A stretch of 35,253 nucleotides of DNA from a virus. Lineage: Duplodnaviria > Heunggongvirae > Uroviricota > Caudoviricetes. The stretch lies in the IMG/VR virus record IMGVR_UViG_2778261009_000009; one strand, written 5' to 3'. Position numbers and translations under genes: made by a program. Shown piece by piece: positions 2 through 32,398 of the stretch. How positions within the stretch are numbered: the stretch's first letter is position 1; the number at the start of each line of letters is the position of its first letter. The notes below the pieces were generated by a model. It searched no databases. It was not told the DNA's origin and saw only the letters and a program-made list of their open reading frames with translations.

Positions 2-568
2 TTAGCCTCTTATCTTGAATTCTGCTATAACTTTGCCGATGAATACAAGGTCATTAATGTTCATATCAACAATGATATTCCCATAGTTAATCTTAACTTT
101 ATTATCAGGAATTCTAATAACTTGTTTTATAGAATGCTTTCCATCAATGGAGATTAACCAATCACCATCAACTACATCTGTGAAATCCCTCTCAATAAAA
201 TAAGAGTTATTCCCGTTTGATATCACAGATGGTGATGATAAACCATCAGGAATGAACACTTTGTCAAACATTAGTGTTCCTGCATCCAATAGCACTCCAT
301 CAATCAATTTTATTTTTTGAATATTGATGATGTCAGAAGTTAAATATTCATGTTTAGGAGGTAAGCCTGTTACCAGCCACTTTATGTTTACTCCTGTTTC
401 GAGCGCGCACTGAATAACCCAATCAGAAGGGAATGAATCTCTCATGTAGCGTGTAGCAAGACTGCTTTTTGATATGCCTAGTTGTTCACATAACGCCTGT
501 CTTGTAGTGAACCCATAGGCTTCAACCATCCTTTCGATAGCTTTCTTTCCACCTTGACTAAAATCCAT
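2..568 (-). CDS. cI: 186-type CI immunity repressor (N-terminal HTH, no LexA-like Ser/Lys peptidase motif); ATG at 568 preferred over GTG at 673
   Basis: HTH-like segment GFTTRQALCEQLGISKSSLATRYM; AGGTGA Shine-Dalgarno 4 nt before ATG at 568; longer ORF would contain the divergent promoter. Confidence 0.65.
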   Translation of the reverse strand: MDFSQGGKKAIERMVEAYGFTTRQALCEQLGISKSSLATRYMRDSFPSDWVIQCALETGVNIKWLVTGLPPKHEYLTSDIINIQKIKLIDGVLLDAGTLMFDKVFIPDGLSSPSVISNGNNSYFIERDFTDVVDGDWLISIDGKHSIKQVIRIPDNKVKINYGNIIVDMNINDLVFIGKVIAEFKIRG

Positions 569-2272: not shown

Positions 2273-2499
2273 TGGCTGATGCAATGGATCTCGTACAGCA
2301 GCGCGTTGAAGAAGAACGCCAACGCCATATCCGTGCTGCCCGTGCCAAAACGCCGGGCGTGTCCCGCGTGCTTTGCGTTGAGTGTGAAGCGCCAATTCCG
2401 CCAGCACGCCGCCGTGCCATTCCGGGTGTGCAGCTTTGCATTACCTGTCAGGAAATCGCAGAGCTGAAAGGCAAACATTACAACGGAGGTGCTGTATGA
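2272..2499 (+). CDS. TraR/DksA-family C4 zinc-finger protein
   Basis: CVECEAPIPPARRRAIPGVQLCITCQ four-Cys motif; 75 aa; start overlaps previous stop. Confidence 0.7.
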   Translation: MADAMDLVQQRVEEERQRHIRAARAKTPGVSRVLCVECEAPIPPARRRAIPGVQLCITCQEIAELKGKHYNGGAV

Positions 2500-3350
2500 G
2501 CACCATCCTGAAATGGGCAGGAAATAAAACCGCCATAATGTCCGAACTGAAAAAGCATCTTCCTGCTGGCCCGCGACTGGTTGAACCTTTCGCGGGTTCC
2601 TGTGCAGTGATGATGGAGACGGATTACCCCAGCTATCTTGTTGCGGATATTAATCCTGATTTAATCAACCTCTATAAAAAGGTTGCTGCTGATTGTGAGG
2701 CGTTTATATCTCGTGCCAGAGCTTTATTTGAGGAAGCAAACAGGGAGGTGGCTTATTACAACATAAGGCAGGAGTTTAATTACTCCACTGAAATTACTGA
2801 TTTCATGAAAGCGGTATATTTCCTGTATCTCAATCGTCACGGTTACCGTGGTTTATGTCGCTATAACAAGAGCGGGCATTTCAACATTCCCTACGGTAAT
2901 TATAAAAATCCGTATTTCCCTGAAAAAGAAATTCGCGCATTTGCAGAGAAAGCCCAGCGGGCAACGTTTATCTGCGCCAGCTTTGATGAAACGCTGGCGA
3001 TGTTGAAGGTGGGGGATGTGGTGTATTGCGATCCGCCTTATGACGGTACGTTTTCCGGCTATCACACTGATGGTTTCACTGAAGATGATCAGTATCACCT
3101 GGCATCCATTCTTGAACATCGGTCATCAGAAGGACATCCGGTCATTGTTTCTAACAGTAACACGTCTTTGACCCGGTCCCTTTATCGTAATTTCACTCAC
3201 CACTACATCAGGGCGAAACGCAGCATCGGCGTTGCAGCGGGGGAGGGAAAATTTGCAACAGAGATGATTGCCACTAAATCTGCTAATTGGTTTAGTGCCG
3301 ATTTTAGTAGGGGACGTGACTCTACTGTTATTTTCGGGGTGCAAGTGTGA
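2496..3350 (+). CDS. dam: Dam-type N6-adenine DNA methyltransferase
   Basis: N-terminal KWAGNK...EPFAGS and catalytic DPPY motif (CDPPYDG); GGAGG RBS; ATG at 2496 overlaps previous stop. Confidence 0.85.
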
Positions 3351-4177
3351 AAGAAATGCACCACGGAATTCATCATTTCCATGGGACGCCTGTCTGGGGA
3401 AGTGCTGGCGACGTTCATCGTATTGCGGTGAGCGGAGCTGGCGCTTTCGTCTCCTATGTACGACCAGATCAGATTGCGGCGTCCATTCAGCACGCTCAGG
3501 TCGTCGGCATTGATAACGGCGCATTTTCTGCATGGGTGCGTGGGCTAAAAATTAACTGGAGTGATTTTTATAAATGGCTCCTGAACTATTACCACCATCC
3601 TAAGGTCGCTTTTTTTGTCATTCCTGATGTTGTGGACGGAGGTGAACGTGACAATGATGCCCTGATAAACGAAGTTCCGAAAATGTTCTACGGGAAGGCA
3701 ACTCCCGTCTGGCATCTGCACGAGTCAATCGATCGGCTTATCGAGCTATGTCGTGAATGGCCTCGTGTCTGCTTTGGATCGTCTGGTGAATATGCGGCTA
3801 TCAGAACTGCGCACTGGCATCGTCGTATGCAGGACGCTTTTGAAGCAATTTATTGCCGACACAATTTCAAAACAGCTGTTCATGGTTTGCGCATGCTTGA
3901 CGGTCGTGTGTTGGGAAATTACCCACTGGCGACTGCCGACAGTACAAATCTTGCCTGCAATGTCCCCAAATTTAATAGCAAATATCCTGAGCTGACGCGG
4001 GCTATTCAGGAGGCTGAGTATTCGCGCAATCTGACGGAAAAGGAGCTGAAAGCTGTCATTCTGAAAAACCGTTGCGCAATTTTAAAAGGTGCAATTGAAG
4101 CTGTTCGCCCACCTTCAGTTTCTGATTGGCTGTCGAATGGTTTGCAGCCTTCACAGCTCGAACTGGAGATTGCGTAA
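3347..4177 (+). CDS. TGT-fold (tRNA-guanine transglycosylase-like, possibly DpdA-like) protein; hypothesis
   Basis: 276-aa ORF with motifs resembling TGT catalytic-Asp segments (VVGIDNGAF ~ LTDSGGFQ; FFVIPDVV ~ MIFDEC; GLRMLDGR ~ GIDMFDC); no CxCxxC zinc motif; start overlaps dam stop. Confidence 0.45.
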
Positions 4178-6518
4178 TGAACTACAGCTATTCCTGGAAT
4201 GCTGAGAAAAAAGCAATCAATCCTTACGTAGAGACGGAAGAGCAATCTTCAGTTTCTGCGCTTTCAAACCTGATCGCTCTGTACGCTGCCGATAACGAGC
4301 AGGAACAGCTGCGCCGCGAGGCACTGAGTGATCAGGTCTGGGAGCGTTATTTCTTTAATGAATCCCGTGATCCTGTCCAGCGCGAAATGGAGCAGGATAA
4401 GCTCATTAGTCGGGCAAAGCTGGCGCATGAGCAGCAGCGTTTTAATCCAGATATGGTCATTCTGGCGGACGTTAATGCCCAGCCTTCCCATATCAGCAAG
4501 CCACTGATGCAACGTATTGAATACTTCAGCAGCCTGGGCAGGCCAAAGGCTTATTCCCGCTATTTGCGTGAGACGATTAAGCCATGTCTGGAACGGCTGG
4601 AGCATGTACGCGACTGTCAGCTATCCACTTCTTTTCGCTTTATGGCAAGCCATGAAGGGCTGGACGGCCTGCTGATCCTGCCTGAAATGAGTCAGGATCA
4701 GGTGAAACGCCTGTCCACCCTGGTAGCTGCGCATATGAGCATGTGCCTTGATGCAGCTTGTGGCGATTTGTATGTCACCGATGACGTTAAGCCAGAAGAA
4801 ATCCGCAAGACATGGGAAAAGGTGGCAGCGGAAACCCTGCGTCTGGATGTTATCCCGCCTGCGTTTGAGCAACTCCGCCGGAAAAGAAACCGCCGTAAAC
4901 CCGTGCCCTATGAACTCATTCCGGGTTCGCTGGCGCGTATGTTGTGCGCTGACTGGTGGTACCGGAAATTATGGAAGATGCGTTGCGAATGGCGGGAAGA
5001 GCAGTTGCGTGCTGTCTGCCTGGTCAGCAAAAAGCATCTCCCTATGTCAGCTATGAAGCCGTGATGCATAAACGTGAGCAGCGCCGTAAGTCGCTGGAGT
5101 TTTTTCGTTCTCATGAACTGGTGAACGAAGACGGCGACACGCTGGACATGGAGGATGTGGTAAACGCCAGCAGCAGCAACCCTGCGCATCGCCGCAATGA
5201 GATGATGGCCTGTGTTAAAGGCCTGGAGCTTATCGCGGAAATGCGCGGTGACTGCGCCGTTTTCTACACCATCACCTGTCCGTCACGTTTCCATTCCACG
5301 CTAAATAATGGCAGGCCCAACCCAACTTGGACAAATGCGACGGTAAGACAAAGCAGTGATTATCTGGTCGGCATGTTTGCTGCATTTCGTAAGGCGATGC
5401 ACAAAGCCGGATTGCGGTGGTATGGCGTGCGGGTGGCTGAGCCGCATCATGACGGTACAGTTCACTGGCACCTGTTGTGTTTTATGCGCAAAAAAGACCG
5501 CCGCGCCATCACTGCATTACTGCGTAAGTTTGCCATCCGTGAAGACCGCGAGGAACTGGGCAATAACACTGGGCCGCGCTTTAAGTCTGAGTTGATTAAC
5601 CCGCGCAAAGGTACGCCAACAAGCTACATCGCGAAATACATCAGTAAGAACATTGACGGGCGTGGTCTGGCTGGCGAGATCAGCAAGGAAACGGGGAAAT
5701 CCCTGCGTGATAATGCTGAATACGTTAATGCCTGGGCGTCTCTGCATCGTGTTCAGCAATTCCGCTTCTTTGGCATTCCGGGGCGTCAGGCTTACCGTGA
5801 ACTGCGATTGCTGGCTGGTCAGGCGGCAAGGCAACAGGGGGACAAAAAAGCAGGTGCGCCGGTACTGGATAACCCGCGCCTTGATGCCATCCTGGCTGCT
5901 GCTGATGCTGGTTGTTTTGCCACCTACATCATGAAGCAGGGCGGCGTACTGGTTCCCCGCAAATATCACCTCATCAGAACCGCTTATGAAATCAACGAAG
6001 AGCCGACCGCCTATGGCGATCACGGCATTCGTATTTATGGCATCTGGTCACCTATTGCAGAGGGCAAGATCTGCACTCATGCCGTGAAGTGGAAAATGGT
6101 TCGTAAGGCCGTTGATGTTCAGGAGGCGGCAGCCGACCAGGGCGCTTGCGCCCCTTGGACTCGTGGCAATAACTGTCCCCCTGTTGAAAATTTGAACCAA
6201 TCAGGGGGCGATTTACCAGAAGCCAGTGGGCCGGAGTCGCTGCCGGATCTTCATAATCTGAGCGCGAAGGAACGACGGGAGCTGACGGCGCGGCTGAGAT
6301 TGGTAAAACCTAAGCGGCGGAAAGGGTACAAACAGCAGATTAGCAATCATCAGCGCCAGCAGCTTGATGCTGAACTGAGGTCTAGGGGGTTCGATGCGAG
6401 TGATACCGAGGTGGATCTGCTTTTGCGTGGTGGCAGTATCCCGTCCGGGGCCGGGCTGCGTTTGTTCTATCGAAACCAGCGCCTGCAGGAAGATGATAAA
6501 TGGCGGCAGTGGTACTAA
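4177..6518 (+). CDS. A: Replication initiation protein A (HUH rolling-circle endonuclease), interrupted by a frame change near 5029-5034 (ORFs 4177..5064 and 4956..6518)
   Basis: [16 protein letters not shown] motif and [12 protein letters not shown] tyrosine motif in the downstream frame; both frames resemble P2 A across the junction as recalled from memory. Confidence 0.8.
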
Positions 6519-6550
6519 TGTGAGAGTATTTTATATTCATATTCAAAAAT

Positions 6551-6582
6551 GCCAGCCTAACAAATCAGGCTGACATTTTTTT
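6551..6582. terminator. Bidirectional rho-independent terminator between gene A and convergent cargo operon
   Basis: Stem cagcct/aggctg (6553-6558/6567-6572), T7 run 6576-6582 on plus, A5 run 6545-6549 giving T-run on minus. Confidence 0.5.
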
Positions 6583-6589
6583 ACTTACT

Positions 6590-7048
6590 CTATTTAGTTT
6601 TTTCAATCATAGTGCTTTCGGCTTTTGAATATACACTATTAATAGTGGTGATTTTTGTAGTTAATGCTATACAAACTAGACTCAGAAGTAAGACACCAAT
6701 TGATATTGTATTGTTGCTGAGTATTATATGTAGACAAATAGAATAAATTGCAACAATGACTATTGCTACGAAAACAAAGATTGCCATTAAATTATGTGCT
6801 TTGATGTAGTCCTCAGGGGTTAATATGTAGCTTATGTTTATGATTATAAATAAAATTAAAAATGCTCCCCCAATCCATTTGGGTAGGGCTGTTTCTTTTT
6901 TTGATACTGCAGGTGTGGTTCTTGGGATCGATTCTACGAAGGATTTAAGATTTCCCATGTCAGTATTGTTTAATGCTGCACTTTCTGCTTCGAATTTTGA
7001 AACAGTGCCATCAGGAAGGGTTGTAGTCCAGCTTATTTTTCCTGTCAT
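6590..7048 (-). CDS. cargo membrane protein (152 aa; about 55-aa soluble N-terminus then about 3 TM helices), unknown function
   Basis: AT-rich ORF; start ATG overlaps upstream stop (ATGA); AGGGA RBS; hydrophobic segments FLILFIIINISYIL, MAIFVFVAIVIVAIYSI, IGVLLLSLVCIAL. Confidence 0.6.
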   Translation of the reverse strand: MTGKISWTTTLPDGTVSKFEAESAALNNTDMGNLKSFVESIPRTTPAVSKKETALPKWIGGAFLILFIIINISYILTPEDYIKAHNLMAIFVFVAIVIVAIYSICLHIILSNNTISIGVLLLSLVCIALTTKITTINSVYSKAESTMIEKTK

Positions 7049-7419
7049 ACAACATCCCTTATTCTGAATATTCTATTAAAATCAATATCAACAGCAGAGT
7101 TCGACCACTCACTCTTTTGATTATCTTTAATTAGAATTGCTTTGTTCTCGTCAAAGATTATATTTGTACCACTAAACTCAATATGAGATAGGTCTCCTCT
7201 AAATATTTTTTGCTCAACGCTTTTGAATGCATCTTTTAATGATGCACACTCTTTTCTGAATAATGGTTTGGGGCTGTAAGTCCCTAAGTTTATAACTATT
7301 ACGCCACTACCATCTTTAGCAGGGTGAATGGAGAAAGATAGCGCTAATCCGTGATAGTGGGATTGTATTTTCTTCATTAATTTACGAACGTAATCATCAT
7401 ACCGCTTTCTATATATCAT
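7045..7419 (-). CDS. cargo soluble protein (124 aa), unknown function, first gene of two-gene operon
   Basis: AT-rich ORF translationally coupled to 6590..7048; candidate promoter TCGACA-18-TAATAT upstream on minus strand. Confidence 0.55.
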   Translation of the reverse strand: MIYRKRYDDYVRKLMKKIQSHYHGLALSFSIHPAKDGSGVIVINLGTYSPKPLFRKECASLKDAFKSVEQKIFRGDLSHIEFSGTNIIFDENKAILIKDNQKSEWSNSAVDIDFNRIFRIRDVV

Positions 7420-7583
7420 TTTTTTCTTAATGGTTAGTTGTTTTTCGTATATTACAATACTAATAAATATATTGTCGATTCAAATAAAACGTTGTAGCCA
7501 AGCGGAAGAATTTTAGTTTACGGATGGTTGTTTTTTGATCTCCATAGCCGAAGGCAATCTGAACTATAGTGATCATAAAAGTG

Positions 7584-7627
7584 TTTACATTCATGGAACT
7601 ACGCATATACTGTATATGTGTACAGTG
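7584..7627 (+). promoter_or_regulatory. SOS-regulated promoter: -35 TTTACA (7584-7589), -10 TATACT (7606-7611), LexA box TACTGTATATGTGTACAGTG (7608-7627)
   Basis: Perfect CTGT-N8-ACAG palindrome (7610-7625) overlapping the -10 and start site, about 30 bp upstream of a strong RBS. Confidence 0.7.
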
Positions 7628-7657
7628 CTTTCTGTGTGTTTGGTGATAGGAGGGAAG

Positions 7658-7846
7658 ATGCAAGACTATTTTTTGGAGTCGTTGAAGCTCCAGCGCATTG
7701 ATTTTTTTGTCAAGCTTGTGGCGGCTAGTGAGTGTGATGATGAAGAGAAGCGACTGGCTATCCAGTGGGTTTCTGAGTTAACGGATGAGCTGATGGCAAA
7801 GATTCGTGCTCATGAATACAACCGCTCAATGGATCTTCCCAGTTAA
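7658..7846 (+). CDS. SOS-controlled small protein (62 aa), candidate Tum/DinI-like antirepressor
   Basis: ATG at 7658 with TAGGAGGGA RBS immediately downstream of LexA box; acidic small protein; weak resemblance to DinI C-terminus. Confidence 0.55.
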   Translation: MQDYFLESLKLQRIDFFVKLVAASECDDEEKRLAIQWVSELTDELMAKIRAHEYNRSMDLPS

Positions 7847-7924
7847 CAGCAGGAACGTTGCTGGCGTGAGAACTAGCTTCTTACGTCAGCAAGGTTAAAC
7901 AACGAGTACAACGAGGCGTTAGCC

Positions 7925-8191
7925 ATGGGTAAATCCAACAGCAAATTCCAGACCGTTTATGAGGGGCAGGCGCTTGAACGTGACGAACTTGGCGGATGGG
8001 TTTTGTTTCAGCGTCGTGTAGAGTATGGCGGCAAGTACTGGATGGGAATAACCATGGATGATGTGTTTTTGTTTGGCTCCGATCATCCTGTATCAGGTAG
8101 TGAGGCGATGGTCTTCATCATTGATTATGAGGGCGAGCAGCTCAGACGGTCTTTACCCGTTGGATACACCCCACAAATGCCGCTTTTCTGA
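7925..8191 (+). CDS. SOS-operon second gene (88 aa), unknown function
   Basis: ORF with GAGG RBS, same strand, followed by strong terminator. Confidence 0.5.
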   Translation: MGKSNSKFQTVYEGQALERDELGGWVLFQRRVEYGGKYWMGITMDDVFLFGSDHPVSGSEAMVFIIDYEGEQLRRSLPVGYTPQMPLF

Positions 8192-8258
8192 CAACCGGCT
8201 GGGTGCATGTCTATGCTGCATGAGATCGCATGATCGTTTGAGGATCGTTTTCGCTGAG

Positions 8259-8286
8259 GCCCGCCAGAACTGGCGGGCTTTTGCTT
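8259..8286 (+). terminator. rho-independent terminator of the SOS operon
   Basis: 8-bp GC stem gcccgcca/tggcgggc, loop gaac, followed by TTTTGCTT. Confidence 0.75.
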
Positions 8287-8327
8287 ATGTCATGCAGGTG
8301 CATGAAAATCGCTCCATAAAGCGGGCA

Positions 8328-8346
8328 GGCGTGGCGGGGATACGAG
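8328..8346. other. candidate cos site (cohesive-end sequence) GGCGTGGCGGGGATACGAG
   Basis: First 13 nt match the P2/186-family 19-nt cohesive end as I recall it (GGCG(A/T)GGCGGGGAAAGCA...); lies in non-coding DNA between right-end genes and the Q side. Confidence 0.35.
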
Positions 8347-8433
8347 CGCGCGCAATAGGGTTATGTACAATAAATTTTTGACGATCTTCGAGTGTTATTA
8401 GCTTGAGGCTGTCAGGGAAAATGAATACAATAA

Positions 8434-8465
8434 GAAGCGCCTAGCAGAATGTTACTAGGCGCTTC
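8434..8465 (-). terminator. perfect 11-bp inverted repeat hairpin (gaagcgcctag ... ctaggcgcttc), possible terminator of the minus-strand cargo operon
   Basis: Read directly; followed on minus strand by T-rich stretch; no T-run on plus. Confidence 0.35.
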
Positions 8466-8498
8466 GAATATATAACCTGTATGACTTTCTTAACCTAC

Positions 8499-8606
8499 TT
8501 ATCTTTTTGATTTCTTCTTCGTATCATCGTGATCGAATACTTGGCGTGTAGGCGGCTTGCTGGGTGGTGGCGGCGGCGGTAAATTAGATTTCTCATTTTT
8601 GCTCAT
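8499..8606 (-). CDS. polyproline mini-ORF 3 (35 aa): MSKNEKSNLPPPPPPSKPPTRQVFDHDDTKKKSKR
   Basis: Hand-translated; own AGGA RBS; start lies inside the end of mini-ORF 2; paralogous to two upstream mini-ORFs. Confidence 0.35.
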   Translation of the reverse strand: MSKNEKSNLPPPPPPSKPPTRQVFDHDDTKKKSKR

Positions 8607-8724
8607 CTTTATTTTTCCTATTTTTTGGATCATTGCCATAGCTTTCTCTAACTAACCGAGTGATTGGCGGTTTAGGTGGTGGTGGTGGTGCTTCATTTTT
8701 TTTAGGATTTTTGTGTTCGGTCAT
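8593..8724 (-). CDS. polyproline mini-ORF 2 (43 aa): MTEHKNPKKNEAPPPPPKPPITRLVRESYGNDPKNRKNKDEQK
   Basis: In-frame portion of track ORF 8593..8778 starting at ATG 8724 with AAGGA RBS; overlaps neighbours in other frames. Confidence 0.4.
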   Translation of the reverse strand: MTEHKNPKKNEAPPPPPKPPITRLVRESYGNDPKNRKNKDEQK

Positions 8725-8839
8725 TTTTATCGTCCTTTCTGTCTCTTCGTAGTTGCCTTGCTTTTGAATCATCTTCAATAACGATCCTTCTTGCGGGTGG
8801 AGTAGGCCGAGGAGGTGGTGGCGGTAACGGTTTGGTCAT
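8702..8839 (-). CDS. polyproline mini-ORF 1 (45 aa): MTKPLPPPPPRPTPPARRIVIEDDSKARQLRRDRKDDKNDRTQKS
   Basis: Hand-translated; ATG overlaps stop of upstream membrane-protein gene (TAATG); AGGAGA RBS 5 nt upstream. Confidence 0.4.
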   Translation of the reverse strand: MTKPLPPPPPRPTPPARRIVIEDDSKARQLRRDRKDDKNDRTQKS

Positions 8840-9489
8840 TAAGTTCTCCTGACATTTTCAATAGGTATTATCAAATAGTTAGGGTCGTTATTTTTCCGCG
8901 GTGATGCTGCATCTAAATCAGCTAAAAGAAATATGACTACTGCTGCGATAATTGGAATCCATGACCAGACAAGATACTTTGTTGACTCAAATAGTTTACT
9001 GGAACGTTCCTCATTGATATTACTGTTCCAGCTAGCACATTCTCTGATTTCTTGATGAATAAACTCCCAAAGTTTATTATCAGGGTTATAACTTTCATCG
9101 TATGTAAGTCCATTGTCATCGCAATATTTTTTATATTTCACTTCGTAACTAATCAGATCTATGTGATAATCATGCAATGCTTTAGGTGCAGGGCAATACT
9201 TAAATTCATTTCCCCATATGACTTGTTTCAACAGAATTGATGATACAAGAACTAAACCAAATGAAATTGCGGTACATAAAAATACTAGGCAAGCTAGCCT
9301 TGGGTGGGATTCATAAGATGTATTTTTGGCGAGATAAGTGAGTATAGTTGCGGTAATGACAACTAATCCGAATTCGGCTTGAGCGCGAGTATGTATCTTG
9401 TCTTTATTCTCAATTTCTGAGAAATAAAGTTTTTCGTAAAATTCTAATGCTTTATCCTTTTTCATTTTTAGATTCAGTGTGATGTCCAT
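8839..9489 (-). CDS. cargo membrane protein (216 aa; two N-proximal TM helices, soluble Cys-containing middle domain, C-terminal TM helix), unknown function
   Basis: AT-rich ORF between portal terminator and mini-ORFs; hydrophobic segments FGLVVITATILTYL, LACLVFLCTAISFGLVLVSSILL, VWSWIPIIAAVVIFLL. Confidence 0.6.
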   Translation of the reverse strand: MDITLNLKMKKDKALEFYEKLYFSEIENKDKIHTRAQAEFGLVVITATILTYLAKNTSYESHPRLACLVFLCTAISFGLVLVSSILLKQVIWGNEFKYCPAPKALHDYHIDLISYEVKYKKYCDDNGLTYDESYNPDNKLWEFIHQEIRECASWNSNINEERSSKLFESTKYLVWSWIPIIAAVVIFLLADLDAASPRKNNDPNYLIIPIENVRRT

Positions 9490-9510
9490 GTATCAAACAT
9501 ATCACGATAA

Positions 9511-9540
9511 CAAAAAAAGAAAAGCCGCAATTCTGCGGCT
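9511..9540 (-). terminator. rho-independent terminator downstream of portal gene Q
   Basis: Stem agccgca/tgcggct (9523-9529/9534-9540) followed on minus strand by T-tract (plus A-run 9511-9522). Confidence 0.6.
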
Positions 9541-9549
9541 GTTGGGAAG

Positions 9550-17467: not shown

Positions 17468-17861
17468 AGCGGTGCCTTATGTCCGCAATAACCCGGACAA
17501 ACTGCATCTGTTTGTGGATAACGGTTCGCTGGTTGCCACGGGGGTCAGCTCCATGTCGTGGGAGTACCGTTACACCCTGAACGCGGTGATTGAGGATTTC
17601 AGCGGCGACCAGAATCTGCTGATGGCCCCGGTTTTGCTGTGGCTGAGGGATAACCAGCCCGATGCCATCAATAACCCGGCGTTACGGGAAAAACTATTCA
17701 CCTTTGAGGTGGATATTCTGCGCAACGATGTCTGTGATATCAGCCTTAACCTGCAACTGACGGAGCGTGTGCTGGTCAGCACTGACGGCAGTGTGTCGAA
17801 CGTTGAAGCGGTAGCGGAACCTGATGAACCTGAAGAAATGTGGACGGTGAAACGTGGCTGA
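17430..17861 (+). CDS. R: tail completion protein gpR-like (GTG start at 17430 after CAGGAG; alternative TTG at 17409)
   Basis: Size and position as P2 R. Confidence 0.75.
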   Translation: MNKPQSLRHALNKAVPYVRNNPDKLHLFVDNGSLVATGVSSMSWEYRYTLNAVIEDFSGDQNLLMAPVLLWLRDNQPDAINNPALREKLFTFEVDILRNDVCDISLNLQLTERVLVSTDGSVSNVEAVAEPDEPEEMWTVKRG

Positions 17862-18300
17862 ACTGCAGAAGGTGGACGACTGGCTGAGTGCCTTGCTGGC
17901 GAATCTGGAACCAGCCACGAGAAGTCGCATGATGCGCCAGCTGGCGCAGGAACTGCGCCGGACACAGCAGCAGAACATCAGGATGCAGCGCAATCCAGAT
18001 GGCAGCAGTTATGAACCTCGACGGGTAACAGCACGCAGTAAAAAGGGGCGCATCAAACGTCAGATGTTTGCAAAGCTGCGCACCACAAAATACCTGAAAA
18101 CTGCCGCCAGCGCCGACTCTGCCAGCGTACAGTTTGAAGGTAAGGTGCAGCGTATTGCCCGTGTTCACCATTACGGCCTGCGCGATCGCGTCAGTCGCAA
18201 AGGACCGGAAGTTCGTTACGCAGAGCGTCGGTTGCTGGGTCTTAATGGTGAGTCTTACGTTCTAACTCTTGATATATTGAATAGATTCCTTCTGTCTTGA
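17854..18300 (+). CDS. S: tail completion protein gpS-like (GTG start); last ~19 codons lie in AT-rich inserted DNA
   Basis: Size and position as P2 S; 3' end overlaps convergent moron gene. Confidence 0.75.
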   Translation: MAELQKVDDWLSALLANLEPATRSRMMRQLAQELRRTQQQNIRMQRNPDGSSYEPRRVTARSKKGRIKRQMFAKLRTTKYLKTAASADSASVQFEGKVQRIARVHHYGLRDRVSRKGPEVRYAERRLLGLNGESYVLTLDILNRFLLS

Positions 18301-19048
18301 ATTCACCATATGCCCAATGAATTGCATTTTTTTGTTCAGTCAGAATATATTTCCTAACTTTTTTAGAATAATGAATGGTCAGTATAAAACCCAAAGAAAT
18401 CCATAATAGAATAAATATGGTTGTTGGGGCAAAGGAATAGATAAAGAATTTGTCTTTAACGAAATTCTTGACTTCTTCATCAATGTAAGCATTCCCTTCA
18501 TCAGTGGTTAGTAGTTTACAAAGAATTTCTTTATGTTCGATAGTTAATGATTTGTACTTCTCTGTACTGGCAGAGGATGACTCTTCGCAATCATCCTTTG
18601 ATATTTCCCAATCAGGAGTGGTTAATATTGTAGCTGCAGTCGCCAGTTTTTTTGACATATAAAATGATTCACCGGACTTTATCCAATAAAGCAATGTGCT
18701 ATTTGGTGGGGTTCTAATGGCTTGGATGAAAACTGGACCAAAAATATAAATTGCATACAAAAAAAGAAGTGAAAAGAGAACCGTGATTGATTTTTCAGCC
18801 CATGTGATAGTAGGCAGCCTTTTTAATGATATTCGTATAAGAAAAAAATTTAATATAAACGCAGGTATTCCTGATTTTTTCAAAATTACATCATGAGATT
18901 TTCTATATTTGAATAGTGCTCTTATAACTATCGTCACCAAAGTTATAATAGCTCCAATAATGGAAATCCATGCGGCAAGTGCCGCTGCCGGGGTGTTTAA
19001 AAATTCAGCATTAAATATATTAGAACTTATTGGATTCATAACACTCAT
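18242..19048 (-). CDS. moron-encoded membrane protein (268 aa, about 4 TM helices with central soluble region), unknown function
   Basis: AT-rich minus-strand ORF between S and V; AGGTGG RBS; hydrophobic segments at N-terminus, ~88-110 and ~210-232. Confidence 0.6.
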   Translation of the reverse strand: MSVMNPISSNIFNAEFLNTPAAALAAWISIIGAIITLVTIVIRALFKYRKSHDVILKKSGIPAFILNFFLIRISLKRLPTITWAEKSITVLFSLLFLYAIYIFGPVFIQAIRTPPNSTLLYWIKSGESFYMSKKLATAATILTTPDWEISKDDCEESSSASTEKYKSLTIEHKEILCKLLTTDEGNAYIDEEVKNFVKDKFFIYSFAPTTIFILLWISLGFILTIHYSKKVRKYILTEQKNAIHWAYGEFKTEGIYSIYQELERKTHH

Positions 19049-19151: not shown

Positions 19152-19730
19152 ATGAACGCACAATTAACCGAAATCATGCGCCTTATCACCAACCTGATCC
19201 GCACAGGGGTAGTCACCGAAGTGGACAGGGAAAACTGGCTTTGCCGGGTGAAAACGGGCGAGCTTGAAACCAACTGGATCAGCTGGCTGACGCTGCGTGC
19301 CGGGAATGCCCGCACATGGTGGCGACCATCGGAAGGTGAGCAGGTGGTGCTGCTTAGTCTGGGCGGCAATCTGGAAACAGCCTTTGCGTTACCCGCCATC
19401 TATTCGAATCAGTTCGCGCCACCGTCGACGTCGGCGGACGTCTGCGTGACAGAACATCCTGATGGTGGCTGGTTTGAATACGAACCCGCCACCGGGCGCT
19501 GGTATGTCAGGGGCATCAAATCAATGGTCATTGAGGCCGCTGACAACATCACCCTGAAAACCAGTGAGTTTGTACTGGAGGCTGACCGCACGCGCATTAA
19601 CAGCGAAGTGGTGATCAATGGTGGCGTTACCCAGGGCGGCGGAGCGATGAGTTCTAACGGGATCGTGGTTGATGCGCATCAGCATACTGGCGTCCTGAAA
19701 GGCGGCGACACAACCGGAGGCCCGGTATGA
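19152..19730 (+). CDS. V: baseplate spike/assembly protein gpV-like
   Basis: 192-aa ORF from internal ATG 19152; upstream extension to 18909 lies in the moron region and is rejected. Confidence 0.8.
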   Translation: MNAQLTEIMRLITNLIRTGVVTEVDRENWLCRVKTGELETNWISWLTLRAGNARTWWRPSEGEQVVLLSLGGNLETAFALPAIYSNQFAPPSTSADVCVTEHPDGGWFEYEPATGRWYVRGIKSMVIEAADNITLKTSEFVLEADRTRINSEVVINGGVTQGGGAMSSNGIVVDAHQHTGVLKGGDTTGGPV

Positions 19731-21579: not shown

Positions 21580-23117
21580 GCACAAAATTTTATACCCTGC
21601 TGACGGATATTGGCGCGGCGAAACTTGCCAGCGCCGCCGCGCTCGGTGTGCCTTTAAAAATTACCCATATGGCGGTCGGCGATGGCGGCGGAACATTGCC
21701 AACGCCGGACGCAAAGCAGACAGCATTGGTAAATGAGAAACGCCGGGCTGCGCTGAATATGCTCTATATCGACCCGCAGAACAGCAGCCAGATTATTGCC
21801 GAACAGGTAATCCCTGAAAACGAGGGCGGTTGGTGGATACGTGAAGTGGGCCTGTTTGATGAGTCAGGGGCATTGATTGCCGTGGGAAACTGCCCGGAAA
21901 GCTATAAGCCGCAACTGGCTGAAGGCAGCGGGCGTACCCAGACCGTGCGCATGGTGCTGATTACCAGCAGCACGGACAATATCACCCTGAAAATCGACCC
22001 TGCTGTAGTGCTGGCAACCCGCAAGTATGTGGATGACAAGGCACTGGAGCTGAAGGTGTACGCGGATGATCAGATGGCAAAACATCTTGCCGCACCGAAC
22101 CCGCATTCACAGTATGCAGCCAAAGAAAGTCCTACGTTTACCGGGACACCCAAAGCGCCAACGCCAGCGGCGGGGAATAACACCACGCAGGTTGCGACCA
22201 CCGCATTTGTTCAGGCGGCACTGACGGCTCTTATTAATGGTGCGCCAGCCACGCTGGACACGCTGAAAGAAATAGCCGTAGCCATTAACAATGATCCGAA
22301 ATTCAGTACCACCATTAACAATGCGCTGGCACTGAAAGCGCCGCTGTCGAGTCCGGCACTCACCGGAACGCCAACAGCCCCTACGGCGGCGCAGTCGGTC
22401 AATAATACACAGATTGCCACTACGGCTTTTGTGAAATCGGCGATTGCAGGAATGGTGGGTTCTGCACCTGCGGCACTGGATACACTGAACGAACTGGCGG
22501 CGGCACTGGGGAATGATCCGAACTTTGCCACGACAATGCTTAATGCGCTGGCAGGTAAACAACCGCTGGACAATACGCTGACTAATTTGAGTGGAAAGGA
22601 TGTAGCTGGTCTTCTCACATACCTTGGTTTGGGAGAAGGCTCTGCATTACCTGTTGGTGTGCCTGTTCCGTGGCCTTCCGCCACTCCGCCGACAGGCTGG
22701 CTGAAATGCAACGGAGCAGCTTTTTCTGCTGAAGAATACCCGGAACTGGCAAAGGCTTATCCGACAAATAAATTGCCTGATTTACGCGGTGAATTTATTC
22801 GTGGCTGGGATGACGGACGTGGAGTGGATAACGGAAGGGGATTATTAACGCTTCAGGACGGTGCGATTGTCAGTCATAACCACTATTGGGGAATCTGGAC
22901 TTCACGAACTAACGACCAGACTCTGGAAAGTTTTACAGGCACCACGATTTTAAAACAAATCACGCCCCTGTCTCCAGCCATTGACTTCGATAATTACCCA
23001 ATTCCCAACCCGGCTATTACAGAGGGTGGTGTTGTTGCGGCAACGACTAAACCTGCAGGTGCGAATGAAACACGCCCACGAAATGTCGCTTTTAACTATA
23101 TTGTGAGGGCTGCATAA
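21576..23117 (+). CDS. H: tail fibre protein gpH-like; constant part 21576-22637 fused to the currently expressed variable C-terminal domain 22638-23117
   Basis: 513-aa ORF with N-terminal fibre anchor, two copies of a ~75-aa fibre repeat, C-terminal receptor-binding-like domain. Confidence 0.85.
   Translation: MSTKFYTLLTDIGAAKLASAAALGVPLKITHMAVGDGGGTLPTPDAKQTALVNEKRRAALNMLYIDPQNSSQIIAEQVIPENEGGWWIREVGLFDESGALIAVGNCPESYKPQLAEGSGRTQTVRMVLITSSTDNITLKIDPAVVLATRKYVDDKALELKVYADDQMAKHLAAPNPHSQYAAKESPTFTGTPKAPTPAAGNNTTQVATTAFVQAALTALINGAPATLDTLKEIAVAINNDPKFSTTINNALALKAPLSSPALTGTPTAPTAAQSVNNTQIATTAFVKSAIAGMVGSAPAALDTLNELAAALGNDPNFATTMLNALAGKQPLDNTLTNLSGKDVAGLLTYLGLGEGSALPVGVPVPWPSATPPTGWLKCNGAAFSAEEYPELAKAYPTNKLPDLRGEFIRGWDDGRGVDNGRGLLTLQDGAIVSHNHYWGIWTSRTNDQTLESFTGTTILKQITPLSPAIDFDNYPIPNPAITEGGVVAATTKPAGANETRPRNVAFNYIVRAA
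22612..22637. other. invertase crossover site (hix/gix-like 26-bp site, left) inside H
   Basis: ttctcacataccttggtttgggagaa; reverse complement shares 14 of 14 bp (ttctcccaaaccaa) with the second site; central AA dinucleotide. Confidence 0.7.
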
Positions 23118-23719
23118 TGAATAACGCAGAATTAAACAGTGAATTAATTGCCACTATAGCAGGAGAAATTACTGTTTATAACTTTGACGTCATGAGTCGG
23201 GAGTATATTTCAGCTTCAACTGAATATCTTGCTGTTGGTGTCGGCATTCCGGCATATTCCTGTTTAGATGCTCCAGGCACCTACAAAGCTGGTTATGCAA
23301 TCTGCCGCTCTGCAGATTTTAACTCATGGGAATATGTACCAGACCATCGCGGTGAAATTGTCTTTAGCACCGAAACAGGAGAATCAAAAGAAATCACAGC
23401 ACCGGGTGATTACCCTGATAATACAACCACTATCGCCCCGTTAACGCCATACGATAAATGGGATGGTGAGAAATGGGTGACGGATACCGAGGCACAGCAT
23501 AGCGCCGTAGTAGATGCAGCAGAAGCACAGCGCCAGTCGCTGATTGATACAGCAATGGCTTCTATCAGTCTGATTCAACTGAAATTACAGGCCGGACGGA
23601 ATCTGACGCAGGCAGAAACCGCCCGACTTAACGCTGCGCTGGATTACATTGACGCGGTGACGGCAACAGATACCAGCACCGCACCGGATGTCATCTGGCC
23701 TGAACTGCCGGAGGCGTAG
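23117..23719 (+). CDS. G: tail fibre assembly protein (Tfa, gpG-like), expressed orientation
   Basis: 200-aa ORF overlapping H stop; conserved C-terminal APDVIWPELP-type motif. Confidence 0.8.
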   Translation: MNNAELNSELIATIAGEITVYNFDVMSREYISASTEYLAVGVGIPAYSCLDAPGTYKAGYAICRSADFNSWEYVPDHRGEIVFSTETGESKEITAPGDYPDNTTTIAPLTPYDKWDGEKWVTDTEAQHSAVVDAAEAQRQSLIDTAMASISLIQLKLQAGRNLTQAETARLNAALDYIDAVTATDTSTAPDVIWPELPEA

Positions 23720-24542: not shown

Positions 24543-25109
24543 ATGCTTATTGGCTATGTACGCGTGTCAACAAATGACCAGAACACCGATTTGCAACGTA
24601 ATGCACTGAACTGCGCGGGATGTGAGCGGATTTTTGAGGATAAAATCAGTGGCACTAAGCCCGACAGACCGGGGCTTAAAAAACTGCTCAGGACACTATC
24701 GGCTGGAGACACTCTGGTTGTCTGGAAGCTGGACAGGTTGGGGCGCAGTATGCGGCATCTTGTTACGCTGATAGAAGAGTTGCGTCAGCGTGGCGTGAAT
24801 TTCCGAAGCCTGACTGACAGTATTGATACCAGCACCCCAATGGGCCGTTTCTTTTTTCATGTCATGGGGGCCCTGGCTGAAATGGAACGCGAACTGATAG
24901 TTGAACGTACCATGGCAGGGCTGGCTGCAGCTCGTGCCAAAGGCAGAGTAGGTGGACGCCGTCCTAAGTTGACCACCGAACAGTGGGCACAGATTGGGCG
25001 TTTACTCGAGGCCGGAGAATCAAGACAGCGTATTGCACTGATTTTTGATGTAGGCGTTTCTACCATTTATAGAAAATTTCCGGCAAATAAGAGCAATGAA
25101 TCCCCCTGA
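24543..25109 (+). CDS. serine DNA invertase (Hin/Gin/Cin/Pin family)
   Basis: N-terminal MLIGYVRVSTNDQ catalytic-serine motif, resolvase domain, C-terminal HTH; ATG 24543 with AGGGGA RBS. Confidence 0.85.
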   Translation: MLIGYVRVSTNDQNTDLQRNALNCAGCERIFEDKISGTKPDRPGLKKLLRTLSAGDTLVVWKLDRLGRSMRHLVTLIEELRQRGVNFRSLTDSIDTSTPMGRFFFHVMGALAEMERELIVERTMAGLAAARAKGRVGGRRPKLTTEQWAQIGRLLEAGESRQRIALIFDVGVSTIYRKFPANKSNESP

Positions 25110-27003: not shown

Positions 27004-27306
27004 ATGAGCGATAAGCAAACTGAAAAGACCATTCAACTGGACACCCCCATCATGCGCGGTAAAACAGAAATTACCGAAATTGTGCTGCGTAAACCGCAGT
27101 CCGGTGCGCTGCGCGGTACACGCCTGCAGGCCATTATGGATATGGATGTAAACGCGATGATGACCGTGATCCCCCGCATCTCCAGTCCGGCACTGACTGC
27201 GCAGGAAATTGCAGAGATGGACCCGGCAGATCTCACTGCCATGTCGGTTGAGGTTGTCACTTTTTTGTTGAAGAAGTCGGTGCTTGCCGGTTTACCGACA
27301 GCCTGA
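27004..27306 (+). CDS. E: tail assembly chaperone gpE-like
   Basis: 100-aa ORF containing slippery T TTT TTG at 27261-27267. Confidence 0.8.
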   Translation: MSDKQTEKTIQLDTPIMRGKTEITEIVLRKPQSGALRGTRLQAIMDMDVNAMMTVIPRISSPALTAQEIAEMDPADLTAMSVEVVTFLLKKSVLAGLPTA

Positions 27307-27440
27307 CGGTTGACGATCTGGTGGCAGATATCGCCACCATTTTTCACTGGCCGCCATCCGTTACTGACGTTATGCCGCTGACCGAAGTGCTGGAATGGCG
27401 GTATAAAGCGATTCAGAGAAGCGGGGCCAACGATGAGTGA
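27004..27440 (+). CDS. tail assembly chaperone E+E' fusion made by -1 programmed frameshift at 27261-27267
   Basis: -1 frame is open from the slip site to TGA at 27438-27440, overlapping the tape measure start. Confidence 0.6.
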
Positions 27441-32179: not shown

Positions 32180-32398
32180 ATGATGATTTGCCCACTGTGT
32201 GGAAGTGCCGCCCATACTCGCAGCAGTTTTCAGGTATCTTCATTGACCAAAGAGCGTTACAACCAGTGCCAGAACATTAACTGCAGCCATACTTTTGTTA
32301 CCCATGAAACTTTTGTTCGTTCGATTGCAACGCCAAAAGAGTCAAATCCGGTTCAGCCGCATCCAATGAAATCAGGACAGGTGGCGCTCTCTCTTTGA
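32180..32398 (+). CDS. ogr: Ogr/Delta-family zinc-finger late transcription activator (72 aa)
   Basis: MMICPLCGSAAHTRSS...CQNINCSHTF four-Cys pattern; same length as P2 Ogr; ATG at 32180. Confidence 0.8.
   Translation: MMICPLCGSAAHTRSSFQVSSLTKERYNQCQNINCSHTFVTHETFVRSIATPKESNPVQPHPMKSGQVALSL

Follow-up and report, generated by a model that had tools for sequence, protein, structure and literature searches.

A probable one-base deletion in a short adenine run interrupts the replication gene A of an otherwise intact P2/186-like prophage

Introduction

In a Peduoviridae prophage of Escherichia coli, the gene for the replication endonuclease (gene A) appears as two overlapping open reading frames that part at a run of five adenines. 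Is this division an error in the sequence, a genuine mutation that inactivates the gene, or a site at which ribosomes change frame and produce the full-length protein? The sequence-only reading of this locus had listed these three alternatives, with a homopolymer sequencing error and an inactivating mutation in a defective prophage kept for its cargo placed ahead of low-level -1 slippage. We analysed the whole stretch of DNA that carries the gene (35,253 nucleotides, hereafter the window), which is 100% identical to NMAY01000002.1, a contig of the E. coli draft assembly GCA_002536795.1. The window comprises the prophage from the C repressor gene (5-568, minus strand) to ogr (32180-32395), followed by the host genes ybjL, ybjM and grxA. 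In GCA_002536795.1, this prophage sits between rcdA and ybjL, the location occupied by prophages of the same kind in relatives.

Results

Gene A is divided between two overlapping frames

Gene A belongs to the P2 gpA family (Pfam Phage_GPA) and covers positions 4177..6518 of the plus strand; the open reading frames and the annotation of relatives indicate a frameshifted gene whose product would have 780 aa with one A restored. The upstream ORF (4177..5064, plus strand) runs from ATG 4177 to the stop codon TGA at 5062-5064 and encodes 295 aa, corresponding to wild-type residues 1-286 followed by nine out-of-frame residues (HLPMSAMKP). The downstream ORF (5064..6518, plus strand), located in the -1 frame, encodes the catalytic part of A. 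Its frame is open from 4953/4956 to 6518, which gives 520 aa from GTG 4956 and 484 aa from ATG 5064, the start chosen by gene callers. At the junction, the upstream frame reads GTC AGC AAA AAG CAT, and the run itself (5029..5033, plus strand) consists of exactly five adenines (A5) between c5028 and g5034. Alignment with four relatives (L001, L002, L005 and L006) places a gap at 5029, marking the run as the site of a one-base deletion, and six adenines (A6) are present at this site in all relatives examined.

The HUH motif (His430-Trp-His432 in the numbering of the intact protein; 5463..5471, plus strand) and the active-site tyrosine pair Y484-x3-Y488 (5625..5639, plus strand, with Y484 at 5625-5627 and Y488 at 5637-5639) are both located in the downstream frame. 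We take Y484 and Y488 to be the catalytic residues, in line with the P2 literature. The N-terminal and catalytic parts of the protein are thus carried in the window by two ORFs, with one base missing, instead of by a single uninterrupted frame, and the window gene is a member of the gpA family by descent in the form of a disrupted copy. All the coordinates given in the sequence-only reading for this split (an upstream part at 4177-5064 and a frame from 4956, with the change of frame at A5) are accurate, and its assignment of the HUH and tyrosine motifs to the downstream frame holds. Its prediction that one extra A would restore a protein of about 780 aa is also borne out, since the repaired gene reads through to give a continuous product of 780 aa, the length of the annotated 'replication endonuclease' of relatives.

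A scan of positions 4800-5300 found no promoter-like sites. Just past the premature stop, at 5079-5096 on the plus strand, a hairpin with a T6 tail weakly resembles a terminator; such hits are no more frequent than chance would give (2 versus 0.6 +/- 0.7 expected). Were ribosomes to stop at 5064, this hairpin might have a polar effect on the distal part of A.

Relatives carry six adenines and a single open reading frame

The sequence-only reading had proposed a comparison with the A genes of related prophages, and in all of those examined the gene is intact at the junction, with A6. The 16 nearest complete E. coli genomes are 99.9% identical to the window over the gene (2,343 versus 2,342 bases) and carry A6 in an intact single gene with a product of 780 aa. 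Each of these nearest relatives differs from the window gene by the missing base and two SNPs, the A5/A6 difference being the sole indel. The same difference is the only internal indel between the first 6.2 kb of the window and E. coli 13TMH22 (L005), which are 99.92% identical. A 96-base query covering the junction matched 1,252 places in 5,426 complete E. coli genomes; none of them was identical to the query (none carries A5), and the best matched at 96/97 over 97 bases. Among IMG/VR contigs with this junction, scored with a gapped pattern search, A6 was present in 119/119 and A5 in none. Moreover, an exact-pattern scan for the A5 junction found no match in the viral, one-genome-per-species or JGI metagenome contig collections. 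The presence of A6 and a single ORF across the relatives compared shows that the two-ORF state is not conserved and is private to the lineage of the window.

The 119 A loci retrieved from IMG/VR include 83 with an intact single frame, 24 cut by the end of the locus and 12 remaining ones, several of which are broken elsewhere in A, either by frame changes (L041, L053 and L080) or by internal stops (L088 and L090). In another relative (L136), the terminase gene is split. These breaks at other positions of A in other contigs, together with the terminase of L136, indicate that disrupted genes are commonplace in such prophages.

The five-adenine run recurs in separately assembled contigs

Indel errors typically arise in homopolymers, and the presence of A6 in all relatives would be expected if the real genome also had six adenines and an intact gene A, with A5 introduced during sequencing or assembly. 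Related assemblies do contain errors of this sort, such as the one-base deletions in G runs of ybjL and ybjM in 13TMH22. This explanation is nevertheless distinctly unlikely, because A5 is also found outside the assembly that gave the window. A separately assembled Logan contig (SRR20627659_276009, 2,164 bp) is 100% identical to window positions 3300-5463, including CAAAAAG, and encodes the exact 295-aa product; a third contig (50-200 kb) encodes this exact 295-aa product and the 484-aa downstream product. Furthermore, base-level comparison of the 35-kb window, which contains 148 homopolymer runs of at least 5 bases, identified A5 as the only frame-breaking homopolymer indel. When the annotated genes of two relatives were translated and matched to the window, about 50 phage and host genes proved to be full length and without stops, and only A is split into two frames. 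Given the recurrence of A5 on separate contigs and the lack of other homopolymer damage, we consider an assembler artefact very unlikely; a sequencing error is also unlikely, bearing in mind that SRR20627659 could correspond to the same strain re-sequenced. More generally, a second, independently assembled dataset helps to tell whether a homopolymer change is a true mutation or an error of assembly.

In the complete genome of 13TMH22, the one-base G-run deletions correspond to window positions ~33492 and ~34612, in the host genes ybjL and ybjM, respectively, both of which are intact in the window. The nfsA gene of 13TMH22 is flagged as frameshifted by PGAP and, together with ybjL and ybjM, forms a pattern typical of homopolymer assembly errors.

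The break falls in the conserved core of the Phage_GPA domain

The repaired-type protein matches the Phage_GPA profile (PF05840) with an E-value of 5.5e-128 and 426.9 bits (cut-off 31.4), residues 174-496 aligning with profile positions 1-321. This match is shared between the two window fragments, the upstream one scoring 84.3 bits (profile 1-115) and the downstream one 309.7 bits (profile 121-321); the downstream fragment also matches REP_ORF2-G2P. We aligned seven sequences comprising the nearest E. coli and Klebsiella relatives, the proteins of P88, PSP3 and P2, and the Rep protein of the filamentous Vibrio phage fs2. The HUH histidines H430/H432 and the tyrosines Y484/Y488 are invariant in this alignment and so are, around the junction, V283, Y290 and S292, as far as fs2. 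At the junction, the sequence of P2 gpA is AVGEVNKDRSPYASK. The invariance of V283, Y290 and S292, P2 included, bears out the earlier statement that both frames resemble P2 A across the junction. The identity amounts to ~31% with P2 gpA and ~37% with PSP3 gp36, so the label 'P2 A' is valid at the family level only. A search for solved structures related to the protein by sequence returned none.

As indicated by the profile positions of the two fragments and the invariant residues on either side, the break falls within the conserved Phage_GPA core (around profile position 115 of 321), between V283 and Y290/S292, and not in a linker or at a domain boundary. This position bears on the possibility that the two ORFs encode a functional split protein, the N- and C-terminal chains being produced by translational coupling and reassembling as an active initiator. 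The stop codon of the upstream ORF does share one base with an ATG of the downstream frame in the sequence TGATG (5062..5066, plus strand), a possible termination-reinitiation point; this ATG is in frame, corresponds to wild-type M297 and is the start that gene callers use (5064). However, residues 287-296, among them the invariant Y290 and S292, would be absent from both products, which makes a working split enzyme improbable; the cut would also pass through the conserved core, and none of the relatives examined is split at this point. We thus regard this possibility as very remote.

Possible ribosomal slippage at the junction

The deletion leaves the sequence C_AAA_AAG at the junction (5028..5034, plus strand; codons AGC AAA AAG by codon phasing of the upstream frame), which contains the shift-prone tetramer A_AA.G. 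Re-pairing of tRNA-Lys from AAG to AAA in the -1 direction, followed by GCA, yields ...VSKKASPY..., exactly the wild-type sequence. The gene could therefore be a leaky mutant, in which the deletion is real and -1 slips on C_AAA_AAG supply useful amounts of full-length wild-type gpA, the prophage being attenuated and not dead. Published measurements speak on both sides of this proposal, which we consider unlikely. The tetramer A_AA.G is the most shift-prone one in E. coli when stimulated, whereas tetramer motifs without a stimulator show a mean of 0.147% shifting versus a background of 0.112% (PMC4066793). For C-AAA-AAA without an obvious stimulator, 25-60% shifting was reported in a T7 overexpression vector (PMC1851650), and a 'savior indel' combined with low-level frameshifting has a precedent in the herpesvirus TK gene (PMC5009743). 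In the window, stimulatory elements are not apparent: the downstream region 5035-5125 folds at -17.5 kcal/mol versus a shuffle mean of -20.9 (z = +1.13), i.e. no better than shuffled sequences, and the 20 nt before the site (5008-5027) contain no visible SD-like (GGAGG-like) element. Moreover, the motif owes its existence to the deletion and is found in no relative, suggesting that nothing selected for C_AAA_AAG. Leakiness is possible but probably near background. Slippage well above background, for which we see a still smaller chance, would turn the prophage into a naturally attenuated replicator, an example, in a temperate phage, of a 'pseudo-pseudogene' or savior indel; spontaneous induction might then be less costly and a route back to viability be kept.

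A dedicated recoding device, either programmed (a conserved two-ORF layout) or phase-variable (an A5/A6 contingency tract), is much harder to reconcile with these data and appears most implausible. The general shape of the locus, with overlapping ORFs and a homopolymer at their junction, is what such a device would have in common with it. Nonetheless, A5 occurs at none of the 1,252 E. coli places and in none of the 119 viral contigs, the tract is short (5-6 bases) and stimulatory structure is absent. The junction also departs from the canonical X_XXY_YYZ heptamer, C_AAA_AAG satisfying only the A_AA.G tetramer rule (definitions in PMC4066793), and relatives, with A6 and a single ORF, do not share the two-ORF arrangement. 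We rejected a programmed -1 frameshift in A for want of a canonical heptamer, a stimulator and conservation of the split. A phase-variable contingency locus was likewise rejected, as both tract lengths do not recur and A5 is confined to this lineage.

This phage does have a true programmed -1 site elsewhere, in the tail assembly chaperone genes E and E' (27004-27437, plus strand), where the slip heptamer T_TTT_TTG is located at 27262-27268 in a two-ORF layout that is annotated likewise in relatives. We identify this site with the programmed -1 frameshift known from P2-like phages; it contrasts with gene A, whose change of frame is accidental.

Gene content around A and at other variable loci

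A gene encoding 273 aa (3356-4177, plus strand) is located between dam (2496-3350) and A, its TAA stop codon (4174-4176) abutting the ATG of A at 4177. The product matches phrog_887, 'queuine tRNA-ribosyltransferase' (E = 7.5e-96), and has no Pfam or PADLOC match; on the basis of the phrog_887 match, we consider it a candidate DpdA/Tgt-like protein of 7-deazaguanine DNA modification. Most relatives are devoid of this gene: dam is directly followed by a gene A encoding 794-804 aa with a different N-terminus, and DNA matches to gene A of the window begin at nucleotide 76 of the gene.

Downstream of A, the region between gpA and gpQ is a hotspot in P2-like phages (PMC9122126). In the window, this hotspot (6519-9549) contains ORFs at 6590-7048 (minus), 7045-7419 (minus), 7658-7846 (plus), 7925-8191 (plus) and 8839-9489 (minus). 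The small ORFs of the hotspot gave no PADLOC match and none past the Pfam threshold, and their PHROG matches correspond to families of unknown function. The ORF adjoining the portal gene (8839-9489) encodes 216 aa and is widespread in relatives (446 index blocks), suggesting that it probably belongs to the conserved phage genes rather than to the cargo; A is intact on all those contigs. This gene was considered as a marker of sister prophages and discarded, being too widespread to isolate the lineage.

A 268-aa DUF6216 protein (E = 1.6e-11) is encoded at 18242-19048 on the minus strand, between a virion-morphogenesis gene (17854-18291) and the baseplate V gene (19152-19727). This region has no match in the relative 13TMH22, pointing to a second variable locus. 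The segment 23117-25106 resembles an invertible tail-fibre segment: a tail-fibre assembly gene (23117-23716, plus strand) faces two genes at 24110-23694 and 24515-24117 (minus strand), followed by a recombinase-family gene (24543-25106). Outside the window, just to its left, the source contig (L007) has a DUF4276 gene and a gene for an AAA_15/AAA_21 ATPase at 4091-5824, flanked by those for the integrase and the C repressor; both also occur in 13TMH22 and likely form an accessory or defence pair.

Discussion

The division of gene A is, with high probability, the result of a genuine, recent and lineage-private A6 to A5 deletion in an otherwise intact P2/186-like prophage, and the resulting allele is predicted from its sequence to be null or severely hypomorphic. 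Such a loss would be of the replication-slippage type in a short homopolymer. The deletion truncates the initiator after residue 286, and the catalytic part with its HUH and tyrosine motifs is no longer in frame. Normal translation would then yield an N-terminal fragment of 295 aa and, through reinitiation, at best a C-terminal one of 484 aa, both without the stretch that carries Y290 and S292. The gpA protein of P2 nicks the origin and acts in cis; from this, we predict that after induction the prophage initiates rolling-circle replication hardly or not at all, the deletion having probably disabled its replication.

Concerning the alternatives of the sequence-only reading, the inactivating mutation thus remains as the best explanation, the error loses ground with the occurrence of A5 on further contigs, and -1 slippage is reduced to incidental leakiness at most, in view of the missing stimulator and conservation. 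The accompanying suggestion of a defective prophage kept for its cargo finds no support: no damage is seen in the other phage genes checked, and only this lineage carries the allele, which argues for recent damage and not for long-term domestication. The event is ordinary pseudogenisation, or prophage decay, of a known kind and opens no new biological question. For annotation, it implies that the locus should be labelled as one frameshifted replication endonuclease rather than as two proteins. The prophage would be replication-defective and locked in, and probably still expresses its immunity and hotspot genes. As in the P2/P4 pair, late genes for a P4-like satellite are probably still expressible without gene A function.

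Comparison with known systems

The window gene resembles the A-type initiators of P2 and 186, HUH rolling-circle endonucleases, in its Phage_GPA match, its invariant HUH motif and its invariant Y-x3-Y pair. As in these phages, A is the last gene of the early operon, preceded by TraR and Dam-type genes and followed by the gpA-gpQ hotspot (PMC9122126). It differs from them by its identity of only ~31% with P2 gpA and by the one-base deletion that interrupts it, and it belongs to a sub-lineage in which ~75 nt at the 5' end are replaced and dam and A are separated by an additional gene (273 aa).

The junction shares with the dnaX-type -1 frameshift signal (A_AAA_AAG with an upstream SD-like element and a downstream hairpin) an AAA_AAG core read by tRNA-Lys and a meaningful -1 product. 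Unlike dnaX, the window site starts with C instead of A and has no SD-like element, downstream structure or conservation; the likeness is a chance by-product of the deletion. The savior indel in the G run of the herpesvirus TK gene (PMC5009743) is similar in being a homopolymer indel of a viral gene whose effect can be partly offset by rare frameshifting, but the window provides no evidence of selection for the indel or of a product.

In kind, the locus resembles the frameshift pseudogenes of prophages: the window has a one-base indel in a short homopolymer, private to its lineage, in a gene that is dispensable for lysogeny. It departs from them in that the prophage is otherwise complete, which suggests that decay, provided that the prophage is dead at all, is at its very beginning.
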